This document shows positions 3,076-26,528 of a stretch of DNA of 64,000 nucleotides, piece after piece. Location of the stretch: NCBI GenBank assembly GCA_016906335.1, contig JADEYG010000012.1, positions 248,001 to 312,000 on the forward strand. Direction: 5' to 3'. Each line of letters begins with the position of its first letter. Positions within the stretch are counted from its first letter, which is position 1. Source of the DNA: Novakomyces olei (lineage: Eukaryota). The notes under the pieces are model-generated. The model saw only the letters and a program-made list of their open reading frames with translations, ran no database searches and was not told the DNA's origin. The position numbers were made by a program, and so were the translations under genes.

Positions 3076-4220
3076 TCACCGCTTGACCCGGCTTTGCCTG
3101 GCATGGGGCCTTTGTTCAAGAACATGGTTCACCATTGATTGCAGACTTGAATCAGTGGAATCTGCAGCGTCAAACCCACCATGAATTGCTTTGACGGGCG
3201 ACAGGCGTTCGTCTATTGAATCAGCATAAACGAATGAAGAACTGTCTCCTGAAGACAGTCGATTTATCAAAGCCTGTGCTTGTCGAAGCCTGTCGTGCAC
3301 ACCATCAAGCTCAGTCCTGACTTGTGCAAGCTCTCGATCCCTCGAGTCGACTTCGTCCATGTGTACATAATTTGGGGCTAAAAGCAGCTCACGAAGATCT
3401 GCTATACGCAACTGCATTTGTGCTGCCAGTTGAGCAACACTCTGAGCTTTTGCGGTTAATAATTGAGGCCTTTTCTTGTTCCATAGAGCATTCAATTCAT
3501 CTAGTGATCTGTTCATTGCCGTCTTTAAAAATTCGTTTTCGTCCGCTACTTCCCGGAAAAGTTCGGTTAACCTGTCAATCGTTTGCTGGCATAATTGGAA
3601 AGCGCCTCCATCAGCATTGGGCATCTCGGCAGCTTTGACATGTCGAGCAGCCAGAGCTAAAGGCGCTGTTCTAACTGTCATACTCGAGCCGCCCTTGCCC
3701 CGGCAATGTTTTTCCTTTATACGAGCCAGCTGAGCGTCCTTTTCGCGGATTCGAACTGCCGCCTGCTGCCTTACCTGCTGTTCTGCCGTCTCCAGCTTTG
3801 CCAGTTGCAGTTTAAGCTTTCGTGTGTCTCCACGGCTCTCTGCCAAGGCAGATTCTGTAGTTCTACAGTACTTAGAGAAATATTATATAGGCAAGCTTAC
3901 AGTAATTTGCCCTTGTAATCGTCAACGTGCCGAAGCGCAGTCTCCAGTCGAGACTCCAGCCCGGTCTGCTTTGCATTGGCCGAGTCGAGACTATCACGAG
4001 CCTTTGACAAATCGCTTTGTAACTGCTCAAAAATGGCTCCGTCTTTTTCACGCTGACGTAGTAGCATGTAAACAACGTTTACCGTATCGGCCGCAGTAGT
4101 AGTTGTGAAGGAAAGAGGCTGGATTCCTTGTGACTCGAGCGCGTGATTAACGAATTTCACAGACGCGTCAAGATTGTCATCGTCACAGAAGCGCACGTGA
4201 CGAACTTGTTCGCGATCCAT
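3076..4220 (-). CDS. Coiled-coil ADIP/SSX2IP-family (Msd1-like) microtubule-anchoring protein, 2 exons
   Basis: N-terminus DDNLDASVKFVNHALESQG...TVNVVYMLLRQREKD fits the Afadin/alpha-actinin-binding family. A 38-nt intron (3863-3900, GTAAGC...TAG) joins it in frame to the coiled-coil ORF 3076-3846. Confidence 0.7.
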
Positions 4221-19014: not shown

Positions 19015-20828
19015 ATGTCGCGCCCTGCGCGCAGTGTCCGATTCCGCGATGAGGAAAGCAGTGCCGGTGACGATCCCGGCGAGGCGGCAATAAGAAATGC
19101 AGAACAAGTTCGAGGGCGAAGGATGCCCTCGTCGACGCTTCAGCTGGGAGGAGCGCCTTCGCGTCTGCGCAATATAAGTGTCGACTCACTGCTCGCTAAT
19201 ATGGGCGAAGTGCCCTCTGCTAGAAAGCGCATCAACGTCAATGCTCGTGGCAGTGATGCGGCAAGAATCCCAAAGCATGCTTTGCCCCAGAGAACTTCGA
19301 AAACGAGCCAAAAACTCGTACTGCTTCCGGAGGACAATGAGGCAAAAGCGACTACCGTCTTCCAAGGCGACGAGGACGAAGAGCCGCCGCGAGATGCAGT
19401 ATCCGTTCGCGGGTCTGATGGAATACGAACCCTGTCAAAGGCCAAAAGAAGTGTGGCAGAGAAAATGTCGCGTGATAGCCGCCGGGAGCATAATCTGCCC
19501 AGGGTGACAGCTTATTGCACTTGCGAGGCCTATCGCCTCCACAAGGCGGCCGTTTTTTTACGCAAAAATCATGAAGTAAAGCCGAGGATATACGATGAAT
19601 GCTTGTACGTGGCCTACCACCTGCCTTTGCTGCCCGGTGCAGATGATACTGGATGCCGAGTACAGAGCAGTCCCCTTGTGCGCGGGCTAAGAGGCGAAGA
19701 CCTGCTCGACCGAGAGATTGATCATACTGAACAACGTGATCATACCCGTGACTGGGACAAACTGGAGCGGAAAAGCAAGGAGCCTGAGCAGGATGAGCGT
19801 TCACCGCCGCAGGAGTCTGCCACTGATGACGAAGAAAGTTCGGCCAGGACTCCGCGAGCAAGGCCAGAGAGACGGGACTCTTTGCCCACGGCGGATGACG
19901 TGCCTCATATGTACAAGCACGCAGAACTCTTTTTGTTTTCTTATGGAACTGTCGTGTTTTGGAACTTTAGCGAAGTGCAAGAGAGGGATATTCTGGCAGA
20001 TCTAACGTTTGCGGACGATGGCACGCTCATGTCCAGGCCTTTACGTAGCGACGATTTGGAAACGGAAGAGTTTCATTTTGAATACTCCCCAAAGACACAC
20101 GCTCCTAGGGTAGAATTGAGTCTTTGATTTATTCATGATTATTTTATTATTATTATTTTTTTATTAATTATCTAACAATCCAGATTTATAATGACATGAT
20201 AACTCTCCGAAGTGCAGATCATTTCATTAAACTTGCCATGTCACACGCCTTGTCACAGTCTGTCAAACTTTCGCTGTTTGAAGAACGAATGGCGAGTAAC
20301 TTGGAGGATGCACAAGATATTCCTCGAAAATTGGCGCTTTCCGGTGAACTCGGAATGACACAGGTGTCCGTGCTCAAAATGTCTGGCCGTCTTTTTAAAC
20401 AACGCGTAGACGTAAATTTAAGCAGTAACGTTTTGGATACGCCTGAATTTTTTTGGGATTCCGAGCCATCGTTGCATCCTCTTTATACTGCTTTTAGGGG
20501 TATTTAGTTGTCTATTAAATTGTTGAATTTTACTGGTTTATTACAATGGCTAAATATACAGAATATCTCGAAATTAGCCAGCGTATACTCGTGCTAAATG
20601 AGAAATGCCGAGTAGTGTTTGACTTGCTCGATATTCTTGCCGACTCTATTGCCGACTCAAAGATGAACCGCATCACTTGGATCGTAATATATCTGATTAT
20701 TCTTTCAATCGTGGTGACTATCGTAAGTCTTGAATCTATACCGGTTACTAACTGGTCAGTTTGAAGTGGGTATTCGCTTTCTTATCATTGTTCGCACAGC
20801 AACGCATGACTCTGGTTTTGGCGTTTAG
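19015..20828 (+). CDS. DUF155/RMD1-family protein, RMD8/Sif3-like, 4 exons
   Basis: PRVTAYCTCEAY, FLFSYGTVVFWNF, PR|IYNDMITLRSADH, VNLSSNVLDTPEFFW and EYLEISQRILVLNE motifs, with a C-terminal TM helix; TAG at 20826-20828. Confidence 0.88.
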
Positions 20829-21303
20829 CGATTTAATTTATCTATCCATTTATTCATTTATCTCTTTATTGCTTTGTTTGTTTTTTGTTTGTTGGTATTT
20901 TATTTTTCTTAAATTCCTACATTCCGACTAATGCGACTTGATACCGCAGCATACATTTGTTGGTCTTTTGCACTTGATGAAGAACGAAATTTTGCAGATT
21001 AGATTAAACATTAGTTTATCTGAATTGTAGAACGCCAGTATTAAAGTAGATTGCGTAACAAAAATATTAGCAACTCTTCAATAAAACATGAAGAACTTTA
21101 AAATAAAATAGTATTTATTACCATATGAATGAACGTGTATAATAATCCCAACCTTCTCTATTACTTGTTCATCGAGTAACATGTCCCAAAATCTTTGTAG
21201 CCGTCTTCCAATATAATCGGTTATTATTACATAGTAGCCAAAGCCAGAAAACAGCCGACAAACTAGAAAAATTCGTCATCAGGGCAATTGATCGAAGTGC
21301 AAA

Positions 21304-23469
21304 ATGACTGATGCAATGGAGAAGCGCAATGATATTGTGAACCCAGACTCGACGCCCGATACGTCCAGTATGGATGAGGACGAGAAAGTTCTTGTAAGCC
21401 TTGATCGGTGAATACAAGGGGAAATGAGAAACTTGTACTGGCGTTTTGGTCGTTCTATCTTGCAAGGGTATGGTGGTAGTAAAGTAGAGAGCACTAATAT
21501 GGCGCGGGTGATAAGGGTGTGTTCCTCACACACTTTTATCTGAGATCATACCGCTCGAACTTGATCTGGACTATACCAGCGAAAGGAAGTCAGAATGCTC
21601 TGTTGTCTCCCCTTTATTTCTAAAATTTTTTAATTTTTAATTTTGTTTGTTTATTCTTATGTTTCTGTATTTTCCGTTTCATTTCCTCGCGCTTTTTTAT
21701 ATCTGTTCGACGTTTTACGTCTTATTATTTTTATTCTACCTTTTCGATTATATTTCTCATTTTGAATAATGTTAATTCGGTGGTAGTATCATCTAGGCTA
21801 CAGGCAAACGCTTCATCGTTCTTTTGGACAGTTTGAAAGTTTTGCTGCCAGCTTTGCGTCACTGTATTCTGTAGGCGGCGTTCGCGTCACATTTACTACT
21901 GGTTTGGCTGCTGGAGGTCCCTTGGCTTATTGGTATGAATTATGACATTTAGATGACATTGTCATATCTCTCTATTATTATATTTTTTGTATTATACTTG
22001 ATACCATTATATTCTCTTCATTTACTTCTGTATTTAATTGTTCAATTTCTGATCTTTCTCTTCTTGCTTCTTTTATTTTTCTAGTTTCCCCTTATCTAAT
22101 TCCCAGGACGAGCTACCTTGTCACATGGGTCTTTACACTGATCACGGCGGCCTGTATGGCAGAGATTTGCTCCGCTCTCCCCGCTGCTGGATCCATTTAT
22201 TTTTGGGCGGCTGAATGTGGGGGTCCAAGGTTCGGACGACTCTTTGGTTTTATTGTGGCCTGGTGGGCAGCAACAGCCTGGTCAACCTTTGTGGCGAGTA
22301 ACAGTCAGAGCGCCACAAACTTTTTGCTCTCAGAAATATCTGTATTTGGCATTGATTTTCCCTCTCCTGACAATGTTCGATTTCGAGCAGTTGCTTGGAT
22401 CGTTGCTGAAGGCATTTTGGCAGTATCAATCAGCCTTAATTTCTTACCCCCAAGAATCTACAAGACTGTATTTAGAGCAGCTGTTTTTGTTATAATGGTT
22501 GATTTCATACTCAATCTTATTTGGCTGCCTATCGGTGTCGTTGAGTCGTACGGGTTTAAATCCGGTCATGATGCAATGCTGGCTCAGTATTACGATATCG
22601 GCCCGGGCGTGTCTCATGGTTGGACATGGTGCCTTTCTTTCCTGGCCAGTGCAGGAGTTCTGGTCGGGTTTGACTCGGCTGCTCACGTTTCTGAAGAAGT
22701 AACAAACTCTGCAATGAGCTCTGCCCGAGGCATTTTTTGGTCGGCTTTTGCTTCAGCTCTTATTGGAGCACCTATTGTAGTTCTGTTTTTATTCTGTACA
22801 CCGGACCTGGATACACTTTACAGCTTGGATGCTCCTCAGCCCTTTGTGCAGTTGTACGCTTTGGCTCTGGGCAAAAACGCTCATATTGCCATGAACGTTA
22901 TCAATATCATCGGGTTGATGTTGAACACAACTGCTGCTGTTGTGGCTGCTTCGAGGCTTATCTATGCAATCGCCCGCGATGGGGTTTTGCCCTTTTCCTC
23001 CTGGATCGGAAAGCCCTCTGACCGGGGACAGCCACGTAATGCTGTTATTGTTATCTGGATAGTTGCTGCTCTCGTGTTGTGTACAATCCTGCCCTCAAAC
23101 GTGGCCTTTACGTCTCTTGTTTCCGCTGCCGGTCTGCCTTCTTTTACTGCTTACGCTCTAGTCAGTTTTGGCAGGTTTTTTTTAACACCCGACAAGTTTC
23201 GAAATTGCCCTTGGTCTCTGGGTCGATGGTCGCACATTATGAACTTCATCTCAATTATTTTCAATCTGTTTGTGACAGGCGTGCTCGTTTCCCCGTACGA
23301 GTGGCCTGTAACTGGGCCTACTTTTAACTATGCTGGAGTAATCTTGGGCAGTGTCACCATTTTTGGTATCATTTCTTGGTTCTTCATCTCGGAAGACAAG
23401 TGGATGTCTTCGCGACAGCTGCTTCTTGTTCAAGAAGCCAATGAGGAGCGGGAGAGCAGGAAGGATTGA
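21304..23469 (+). CDS. thi9: APC-superfamily thiamine transporter, Thi9 orthologue; exons 21304-21393, 21787-21932, 22107-23469
   Basis: Spliced LGYRQTLHRSFGQFESFAASFASL...GGPLAYW...AEICSALPAAGSIYFWAAE...RFRAVAWIVAE...SRLIYAIARDGVLPFS...PVTGPTFNYA matches S. pombe Thi9 as recalled. The intronic TPP aptamer independently supports a thiamine function. Confidence 0.9.
21488..21601 (+). ncRNA. TPP (thi-box) riboswitch aptamer in intron 1 of thi9
   Basis: P2 GCGG 21504-07 / CCGC 21551-54; 13-bp P3 21510-22 / 21528-40; CTGAGA junction 21540-45; CTTGATCTGGACTATACCAGCGAAAGGA (P4/P5, with CTGG/CCAG stem); closing AGAGCA/TGCTCT. Confidence 0.95.
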
Positions 23470-24551: not shown

Positions 24552-26071
24552 ATGACGCTGGATGAAGGAACGCGGACTGTAATCAAGGCCACCGTTCCGG
24601 TCTTGCAGGAACGTGCCGTCGATATAACGAGGACGTTTTACGCAAACATGCTCAAAGCGCACCCGGAACTTTGCTCCGTCTTTAATCTGGAGAATATGTA
24701 TGTCTTTTACTGGTTGGATACGTGCAAGGGACCCACAAGCAGCTATTGATGTAGCCTCGTTGCCTTTTATTCTGATTTCTTTTTCTTCTTATTTTATTAT
24801 TATTTTGGGGCTTATTTGTTCGACTTTCAAATGCTTGCCGATCGGCTCCAGTTACAAGCAAATCCTGTACTGTGCACTAAAGTCACGTATACTGTATCAA
24901 AAGTAAATTACGGGAACCAGAGTTGCCTTGCTTATGAAAACTACACGTTCTACAATCCAATTGAGCCTATTCTAACATGTCTAGGCGAAACGAAAGACAG
25001 CCTCGAGCTCTAGCGGCCGCCTTGCAAGCCTATGCTTCCAATATCGATGATTTGTCTGTGCTGCAGGGCGCAGTTGAGCATATCTGCCAGCGGCACGCGT
25101 CGCTAAACATCGCAAAAGAGCAGTATGCAATCGTAGGCGAGCACCTACTCAAGGCAATGCTCCAAGTTCTCGGTAGCGATGTAGTGACGTCAGCGGTCCT
25201 TGGTGCTTGGGAGCTGGCATACTGGCAACTGGCAAATATAATGATTGACAGGGAAGCGCAGCTGTACAAGGAGGCGCCCTGGAGCGGTTGGCGCGAGTTT
25301 CGAATTGAACGCAAAGTGGCCGAGGCGCGTGATATCACAAGCTTCTACCTGACCCCAGAATCAGGCGACAAAACGGTCAACTTTAACGCGGGCCAGTACG
25401 TCTCCATTTGCGTTTGGCTGGACAATTACGGGATTTATCAGCCTCGGCAGTATTCCGTCTCCGATGCACCGGGAAAATTGCGTATAACGGTAAAAGACTT
25501 GAGCTCTCAACTACCGAATGGTGAGAATGCGCCGGGGCTCGTTTCTCACGTGCTTCATTCTCTGCCTACTGGCGCCATAGTAAAAGTGTCAGCACCACGT
25601 GGGGAATTCTGTGAGTCCATTGCTGCCGACCAATCAGAATTGCAGCAACTGCCCCCGCTCGTACTTGTGTCGGGTGGGATAGGTGCAACGCCGCTTATGA
25701 GCATTCTTGCCGATAACGTAAACCGCGGCACATCGCGACCAATCACGTGGGTTCATGCGTCACATTCCGCTGAGCAAGAGCCTTTTGTACAGCGAATACG
25801 CGAGATCGAACACGACCCCAAGCGCCAATTAACAAGCGCCATTTTTCTCACGGTCGGTGCCAGCAGCCCAGACACCTTCGCGGGTCACGTGGACCTGAAC
25901 AAGATCGCGAGCGCTCTCCATCTCGACCGGAGTGATACGGAATACTTTGTGTGCGGACCACTTGGCTTTATGAAGTCTGTGGACCAAAGTCTGCTCAGCT
26001 TGAAAATTCCCCGAGACCGAATCAAGACGGAAGTCTTTGGTACTGGATCGTTTAAGGCGGGACGCAATTGA
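24552..26071 (+). CDS. yhb1: Flavohemoglobin (nitric oxide dioxygenase), 2 exons
   Basis: Globin IKATVPVL...FYANML...ICQRHASLNIAKEQYAIVGEHLL, FAD-binding GQYVS...RQYSVS, and NAD-binding GGIGATP and FVCGPLGFM. Intron 24698-24984. Confidence 0.95.
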
Positions 26072-26454: not shown

Positions 26455-26528
26455 GCTGGCGTGGCGCAGTCGGTTAGCGCGCTGAACTAATAATTCAGCG
26501 GTCGCCGGTTCGAGCCCGGTCGTCAGCA
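26455..26528 (+). tRNA. tRNA-Ile (anticodon AAT), intronless
   Basis: Acceptor stem GCTGGCG/CGTCAGC with discriminator A; D-arm GCGC...GCGC with A-box; anticodon stem CTGAA/TTCAG around loop CTAATAA; T-loop GGTTCGAGCC; downstream T-runs act as a Pol III terminator. Confidence 0.95.

Follow-up and report, generated by a model that had tools for sequence, protein, structure and literature searches.

A predicted splice-choice TPP riboswitch in the first intron of a Thi9-like permease gene of Novakomyces olei

How might an RNA aptamer lodged in an intron near the start of a coding sequence govern the gene that carries it? The question is raised by a 64,000-nucleotide (nt) stretch of the Novakomyces olei genome (NCBI GenBank assembly GCA_016906335.1, contig JADEYG010000012.1, positions 248,001 to 312,000 of the forward strand; hereafter the window, numbered from its first letter), in which a permease gene holds a thiamine pyrophosphate (TPP) aptamer in intron 1, downstream of two candidate splice donors. 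On modelled folds and a comparison of loci, we consider it fairly probable that this intron carries a TPP riboswitch of the THI9, or amino-acid-transporter, group and that it works as an OFF switch through 5' splice site choice. Sequence comparison among loci supports the OFF-switch reading, because the layout of donors, stop and aptamer recurs in 13 related loci together with an anti-aptamer strand – a segment that would pair with the aptamer's 3' half at the expense of the aptamer's own fold.

The aptamer and its host gene

The gene and its predicted control elements are arranged as follows.

21304..21393, + strand: exon 1, 30 codons, translation ending ...MDEDEKVL
21394..21786, + strand: intron 1, riboswitch-bearing, 393 nt, splitting codons 30 and 31, acceptor AG at 21785-86
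21394..21399, + strand: distal productive donor S1, GTAAGC (CTT/GTAAGC, GT at 21394-95)
21409..21411, + strand: in-frame TGA, from the translation
21439..21485, + strand: alpha, the anti-aptamer strand, which contains S2; predicted to pair with the aptamer 3' half, from helices of the minimum free energy (MFE) fold and shuffle tests
21468..21473, + strand: proximal donor-like site S2, GTATGG (AAGG/GTATGG, GT at 21468-69)
21489..21600, + strand: TPP aptamer, with two-part P1 (GAGCA/UGCUC and UGGC/GUCA), P2, a P3 of 13 base pairs (bp), P4-P5 and loop ACUAUA
21559..21600, + strand: alpha-prime (P4 5' strand, P5, P4 3' strand and P1 3' strand), predicted to pair within the aptamer or with alpha
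21787..21932, + strand: exon 2, YHLGYRQTLHRSF...GGPLAY, 146 nt
21933..22106, + strand: intron 2, between exon 2 and exon 3
22107..23469, + strand: exon 3, body of the APC permease, 454 codons (Pfam AA_permease_2, 6.8e-47)

By its sequence match the element in intron 1 belongs to the TPP riboswitch aptamers (RF00059): the hit at 21494-21605 is full-length (model positions 1-105) and above the gathering score (56.5 bits against 54.3, E 2.2e-08). The alignment to RF00059 shows the core intact, with the CUGAGA junction and the GCG..AGGA motifs of P4-P5 in place, and the canonical aptamer is the MFE structure of segment 21489-21601 folded alone (-34.1 kcal/mol). The aptamer has no P3a, and its junction-side P1 consists of four canonical pairs plus an outer 5-bp extension. 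The P5 loop, which the initial annotation had called unusual, does depart from the family: it reads ACUAUA against the RF00059 consensus uUAAUa.

It is unlikely, in our estimate, that this aptamer is a decaying or non-regulatory relic, and its apparent partnership with S2 a coincidence of the donor-like GGUAU with the conserved AUACC. Such a reading can point to an Rfam score only 2 bits over the threshold, to a P1 of just four canonical pairs beside the junction, and to speculation in PMC8786325 that conservation is lower among thi9 riboswitches and that their function may have been lost. It has to contend with an aptamer that is its own MFE in canonical form, with an extended two-part P1, and with the intact core motifs. 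Further evidence on both sides comes from the pairing tests and the related loci described below.

The host gene, read from 20900-22500 on the + strand, begins at the ATG at 21304. Frame continuity demands the acceptor AG at 21785-86, after which the frame resumes in YHLGYRQ.... Exon 2 matches residues 45-90 of the annotated protein P0006 at 65% identity (E 2e-19), and the junction in that protein (...MDADERYL-KSLGYKQ...) agrees with that in the window (...MDEDEKVL-YHLGYRQ). A comparison of the exon 3 protein gave 768 matches at E <= 0.001 among 8000 candidates scored; the top matches are fungal, share 55-61% identity, and are named 'amino acid permease' or 'Thiamine transporter thi9' by their sources. 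No protein identical to the exon 3 product occurs in the protein collection compared. Judged by sequence, the host gene is a Thi9-like APC-family permease, where the assignment to Thi9 means similarity to proteins so named by their sources rather than a position in a tree with Schizosaccharomyces pombe Thi9. Its product is very likely a thiamine importer, which would be fed back on by the cofactor made from what it imports. This helps to annotate thiamine uptake in a fungal genome that is so far unannotated.

Two donors and a competing fold

The donors, pairing segments, stop and aptamer were all found at the coordinates that the initial annotation had assigned to them. Two further donor-like GTs lie beside S2, at 21476 (GTAGTA) and 21479 (GTAAAG). 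Translation past 21393 reads VSLDR and then the TGA at 21409-11, so that read-through yields a product of 35 amino acids (aa), as had been claimed. The same 35-aa product results whether 21394-21467 (74 nt) or the entire intron 1 is retained, and an in-frame stop is in itself unremarkable in an intron.

The initial annotation had further proposed that S2 is masked by the P5 hairpin in the free RNA. Checked by hand, GGTATGGT (21467-74) can indeed form 8 bp, one of them G-U, with ACTATACC (21570-77; the P5 loop and two stem bases), and it can equally form 8 bp with one G-U with ATCATACC (21545-52). The second candidate partner for S2, AUCAUACC at 21545-52, was set aside: both the MFE structure and the ensemble use the P5 partner, and comparison by eye gave it no support.

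The RNAfold MFE structure of 21380-21640 (-70.4 kcal/mol) contains the helix 21467-74/21570-77 as one of a series. Pairing of alpha with alpha-prime comprises 21440-49/21590-99, 21453-56/21584-87, 21460-63/21579-82, 21467-74/21570-77, 21477-79/21566-68 and 21482-85/21559-62, and the MFE also pairs 21489-92 with 21553-56. The outermost of these helices, 21440-49/21590-99, engages the P1 3' strand, and many of its pairs are G-U. From this set of helices along 21440-21492, the model therefore has the upstream intron arm competing for P5, for the P4 3' strand and for the P1 3' strand.

The strength of these pairings was compared with chance by means of 1000 dinucleotide shuffles of 21394-21493. 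The full complementarity lies beyond chance: the duplex of 21394-21493 with 21553-21620 is predicted at -48.7 kcal/mol, against -32.6 +/- 4.4 kcal/mol for the shuffles, and 2 of the 1000 reach that value. A second shuffle test, of the segment from S1 to S2+25 against the aptamer 3' half, gave z = -2.76 and f = 0.010 for the window. The relic reading would also have to explain why the extended complementarity exceeds chance and is particular to the aptamer of the window itself.

The fold also responds to the aptamer. Forcing the aptamer helices cost 8.4 kcal/mol in ensemble energy and raised the mean unpaired probability of S2 (-3..+6) from 0.22 to 0.46, with that of S1 at 0.30 both ways. In this model a gap of 8 kcal/mol is of an order that ligand binding could pay. 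S2 and the aptamer are enclosed by an outer helix, 21410-27/21603-19 (AAGGGGA/UCCCCUU and its neighbours), which is predicted whether or not the aptamer is enforced. As a conserved clamp it was rejected: its z in the window is -1.26, not beyond chance, z falls below -1.5 in only 3 of 14 loci, and f <= 0.05 is reached only in L057 and L069.

In the mechanism we favour, alpha (about 21439-21485, with S2 at 21468) would zip onto the aptamer 3' half at 21559-21600 when TPP is absent, targeting the P5 loop and 3' strand, the P4 3' strand and the P1 3' strand. The aptamer would be unable to form, S2 would be buried, and S1 (21394) would be joined to 21787 to give the full permease. With TPP bound, the aptamer would close, alpha would be freed and S2 exposed; splicing from S2 or from a nearby cryptic donor (21476 or 21479) would then keep the 74 nt with the TGA at 21409-11. 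The outcome would be a 35-aa peptide and a probably unstable mRNA.

A simpler scheme, which we regard as very improbable, would have TPP stop intron 1 splicing altogether, for example by hiding determinants of the branch site or acceptor, so that the intron is purely retained and S2 has no role. The stop cannot separate retention from splicing at S2, because both give the same 35-aa product, and unspliced stop-bearing products of Candida DUR31 are discussed as regulated species in PMC5997356. Against retention, the aptamer 3' end lies about 180 nt upstream of the acceptor, and no pairing of the aptamer with the intron 3' end was seen in the window folds; retention would also leave unexplained the second donor conserved among the related loci.

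Several observations in the window weigh against direct masking of S2 as we favour it. The duplex of 21394-21493 with P4-P5 (-15.6 kcal/mol) is reached by 41% of 1000 shuffles, so the 8-bp helix alone is not beyond chance, a point that would also suit the relic reading; a GGUAU:AUACC match is expected anyway where a donor consensus meets a conserved aptamer motif. By the donor pattern GTRAGT/GTATGT the hexamer at S2, GTATGG, does not count as strong, and the two other donor-like GTs lie within 12 nt of it. Thermodynamic folds are unreliable for RNAs of 250 nt and take no account of co-transcriptional folding. Masking through P5 thus stands in part: the helix is present in the RNAfold MFE and S2 is freed on enforcing the aptamer, but the helix alone is at the level of chance and belongs to an arm of about 45 nt that also pairs with the P4 and P1 3' strands.

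The arrangement in related loci

Relatives of the gene were gathered by a metagenome scan with a 17-row protein alignment, which gave 473 pattern matches, 298 of them confirmed relatives, and the analysis went on with the best 80. When these were searched with a regular expression for the aptamer core, 29 of the 80 carried one at a distance of 251-568 nt upstream of the exon-3 match, 29 more with at least 700 nt of upstream sequence carried none, and the other 22 were too short upstream. Rfam placed TPP at or above its gathering threshold in 4 of the 17 related loci tested. The scores of related aptamers are low because of long P3 inserts, and a search by E-value was therefore added; at E <= 0.01 it recovered 8 of 11 further loci (34-48 bits), with L049, L073 and L037 unlisted.

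Thirteen loci were analysed (L008, L009, L015, L021, L037, L040, L045, L049, L052, L053, L057, L069 and L073), making 14 with the window. Duplicates and near-duplicates, recognised by eye and from the aptamer core region, were dropped (L010, L041, L054, L056, L065, L066, L070, L071 and L075), as were loci that are cut off upstream or in which S1 and S2 were not placeable (L002, L020, L029, L051, L061, L064 and L074). Counts of ensemble pairing cover 13 loci, L037 being left out, and the MAFFT alignment left out L021.

We observed S1 at the same codon in all 13 related loci (...D[SED]DE[RKQ]xL/GT), whose exon 1 ends as ...MD[SA]DE[RKQ]xL/GT. Where the end of the aptamer intron was inspected, it falls immediately ahead of xxLGYKQ, the same place as in the window. 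By these sequence landmarks, the aptamer is in the same intron as in other Thi9-like loci. The combination of two donors with an in-frame stop, described for the window by the initial annotation, recurs as well. A stop lies in frame between S1 and S2 in 14/14 loci (13/13 related loci and the window), and the S1-S2 length of 61-114 nt is not a multiple of 3 in 13/14. Exactly one strong donor hexamer (GTRAGT or GTATGT) stands between S1 and the aptamer in 12/14 loci, the expectation from shuffles being 1.44; in the window (GTATGG) and L021 (GTAAGA) a weaker second donor occupies the corresponding position. The strong pattern is not matched by any of the 14 S1 hexamers. A masking switch would be expected to need just such a combination, a distal donor that is weak and a proximal donor that is strong. 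Conservation of the entire layout in 13 related loci also argues against a relic.

Complementarity between the inter-donor segment and the aptamer extends across the set. In 14/14 loci the segment from S1 to S2+25 shows greater complementarity to the aptamer 3' half than its shuffles do (z from -0.19 to -4.55; f <= 0.03 in 8/14), and the control, the same segment against the aptamer 5' half, is centred on zero (z from -1.16 to +1.83). In 14/14 loci the predicted pairing of alpha with alpha-prime is collinear along P5-3', J5/4, P4-3' and P1-3'. The MAFFT alignment of the region from alpha to the aptamer misaligns the alpha strands in several rows and was not used for pair counts; collinearity was taken from duplex predictions for each locus, anchored on gap-free columns of the aptamer 3' part, and is structure-fitted and hence biased.

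A permutation test with swapped partners provides an unbiased check on co-variation. The mean energy is -23.8 kcal/mol for cognate alpha/alpha-prime pairs and -20.4 kcal/mol for swapped ones, and the cognate mean was reached in 3 of 20000 permutations. The window, L045 and L053, whose aptamers are divergent, each rank their own partner 1 of 14. The co-variation among orthologues that the initial annotation had looked to for the S2:P5 pairing is thus present in alpha and alpha-prime, but it does not extend to that pairing itself: for S2 against P5, cognate partners are not significantly better than swapped ones (1577/20000 permutations, 14 loci).

Other comparisons likewise count against direct masking of S2 as a shared device. 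The duplex of S2 (-6..+8) with the P5 hairpin reaches -10 kcal/mol or lower in only 3/14 loci (window -12.6, L045 -11.2, L057 -10.9) and lies between -1.4 and -5.0 kcal/mol in the other 11. In partition-function ensembles, pairing of S2 with the aptamer 3' half is seen in 6/13 loci and is essentially absent from the other 7/13. Alpha reaches S2 in 5/14 loci and stops 6-49 nt upstream of it in the other 9. The S2 sites of the orthologues were, moreover, chosen by the same donor pattern that was later tested against shuffles, and the loci are kin to one another (for example L040/L052/L073 and L008/L021); because several are closely related, locus counts overstate independent support. Direct masking of S2 may, on these models, be a local feature rather than a conserved principle. 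As the S2:P5 pairing is weak in most loci and alpha:alpha-prime is kept, the family principle seems to be an anti-aptamer strand between the donors, with the window a case in which S2 lies inside that strand.

The main alternative is a looping scheme modelled on NCU01977 of Neurospora crassa, which we hold to be rather unlikely. Here the use of S1 would be controlled by an alpha:alpha-prime bridge, with no single S2 essential. Without TPP the bridge would enclose S2 and the aptamer 5' half, draw S1 near the 3' part of the intron and favour S1; with TPP the bridge would be lost and S1 use would fall, leading to several cryptic donors or to intron retention, and the stop at 21409-11 would kill the product regardless. 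The co-varying conserved element is indeed alpha:alpha-prime, the P1 3' strand included, and not S2:P5. Looping would also suit the 9/14 loci in which alpha ends 6-49 nt short of S2, the 7/13 in whose ensembles S2 is unpaired with the aptamer, and the clustering of three donor-like sites in the window. NCU01977 itself, as described in PMC3597705, has no single critical alternative site, and its alpha lies near a 5' splice site without overlapping it. Yet in the window S2 is inside the helix, in 8 bp whose S2:P5 duplex of -12.6 kcal/mol is the best of 14 loci, and a single strong second donor is kept in 12/14 loci, which suggests that it is used. The dimensions differ too: a 393-nt intron with about 120 nt from alpha to alpha-prime, against introns of 650-900 nt and a separation of about 500 nt (PMC5882874). 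The initial annotation comes out as confirmed in what it observed and partly supported in how it interpreted this.

The window departs from the 13 metagenome loci in two further respects. Its P5 is CUGG-ACUAUA-CCAG, and the loci are of the type CGCU-UUMAUK-AGCG. In the orthologues (L008-L073) a mini-exon of about 21 nt (xxLGYKQ) separates the aptamer intron from a further intron; the window has lost this further intron, and its exon 2 extends over 146 nt.

A separate group of loci carries a TPP aptamer on the other side of the gene. In L050 (3060-3270; also in L042 near 5600 and L047 near 5568) the permease stop (TAA at 2986-88 in L050) is followed, after about 95 nt and on the same strand, by an aptamer. 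The group represents a more distant Thi9-like paralogue, with 45-47% identity. The L050 aptamer scores 57.9 bits in Rfam at 3082-3193, lies between a donor-like GGGTAAGT and a branch/acceptor-like ACTAAC...TAG, and has a P5 (CUGG-ACAAUA-CCAG) that resembles that of the window. It may represent a riboswitch intron in the 3' untranslated region, or one in the 5' untranslated region of an unrecognised downstream gene.

The permease gene is flanked by other features on the + strand of the window.

20139-20507, + strand: open frame with a DUF155 match (RMND1/Sif2-Sif3/Mrx10 family, 1.1e-34), part of the gene upstream of the permease
24965-26071, + strand: open frame of 368 aa with globin, FAD-binding and NAD-binding domains, flavohaemoglobin-like in appearance; probably a last exon, with the gene start further upstream
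26455-26528, + strand: tRNA-Ile gene, anticodon AAT (Rfam 65 bits, ARAGORN)

Comparison with known fungal riboswitches

Two parts of this arrangement are already in print – THI9-associated TPP riboswitches, and control by a stop between two donors – and the window is not new in kind. The initial annotation had set a stop within the open reading frame apart from the upstream open reading frames of NMT1 as a variant of its own. That claim to novelty falls away: the mode is published as 'Type III' (PMC5882874), and stop-bearing products are described for NCU01977 (PMC3597705). In the account of Mukherjee et al. 2018, 'Type III' applies to introns of 200-400 nt at internal positions, in which an in-frame stop separates two donors; it is offered as a generic model and stated as 'not experimentally observed' (PMC5882874). 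The window resembles it in a 393-nt intron, GTs at 21394 and 21468 upstream of the aptamer (donors by sequence), the TGA at 21409-11 between them, and an acceptor just before the next exon. The main text of PMC5882874 has no mention of permease, APC or thi9.

Riboswitches of THI9 homologues are reported from Taphrinomycotina, Pezizomycotina and Basidiomycetes (Donovan et al. 2018 citing Moldovan et al. 2018, PMC5997356). The same source describes Thi9 riboswitches as awaiting characterisation and thiamine transport as demonstrated only for S. pombe Thi9. In the passages on TPP riboswitches and thi9 that the comparison covered, we found no experiment on a THI9 riboswitch. The amino-acid-transporter group, TPPsw-AA, has an L5 without RUAAUR, and its poorly conserved P5 loop was noted as unexplained in 2024 (PMC11683625). 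The window resembles this group in its host, a Thi9-like APC permease, in an aptamer within an intron near the 5' end of the coding sequence, and in a P5 loop that departs from RUAAUR as described for the group in PMC11683625. As set out in PMC5882874 and PMC5997356, the THI9-group riboswitch and the 'Type III' mode have so far been predictions only; the window would offer a compact test case, with a 393-nt intron and a donor embedded in the competing helix, and the 13 loci give natural co-variation.

The predicted fold shares features with two better-known mechanisms. In NMT1 and THI4 the established mechanism is masking of a 5' splice site by P4-P5 (Cheah et al. 2007, summarised by Li and Breaker 2013, PMC3597705): without ligand, P4-P5 pairs with the sequences flanking the 5' splice site nearest the aptamer, and TPP unmasks that site (PMC3597705). 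The window's fold likewise pairs P4-P5 with the flanks of the proximal donor. It differs in that the intron interrupts the open reading frame (codons 30/31) and the predicted OFF product has a premature stop, and in that the P1 3' strand, too, is engaged by the competing strand. An alpha:alpha-prime pairing that involves the P1 3' strand is described for NCU01977, for which alternative 5'-splice products with stop codons, yielding truncated polypeptides, have been shown experimentally (PMC3597705). Like NCU01977, the window has an alpha between alternative donors that is complementary to the P1 3' strand and co-varies with its partner in 14 loci, and stop codons are predicted in its alternative products. 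It falls outside the NCU01977 type in other respects: that type has a long intron of 650-900 nt, a separation of about 500 nt, a DUR31 urea-transporter host and an alpha off the splice sites, whereas the window has a 393-nt intron, a separation of about 120 nt, an APC permease host, and an alpha that lies over P4-3' and P5-3' and overlaps S2.

We tentatively suggest, as a possibility short of a probable one, that the THI9 group shares an expression platform that is a hybrid of these two fungal mechanisms. In it, an anti-aptamer strand of 25-45 nt between the donors would co-evolve with P5-3', P4-3' and P1-3', and the P5 loop would be variable where lineages (the window, L045 and L057) recruit it to their local second donor. 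The findings on the window and its relatives leave the general understanding of eukaryotic riboswitches as it was. The novelty that remains is the hybrid, co-varying anti-aptamer strand and a possible reason for the odd L5; if true, the hybrid could explain that feature of the THI9 group.

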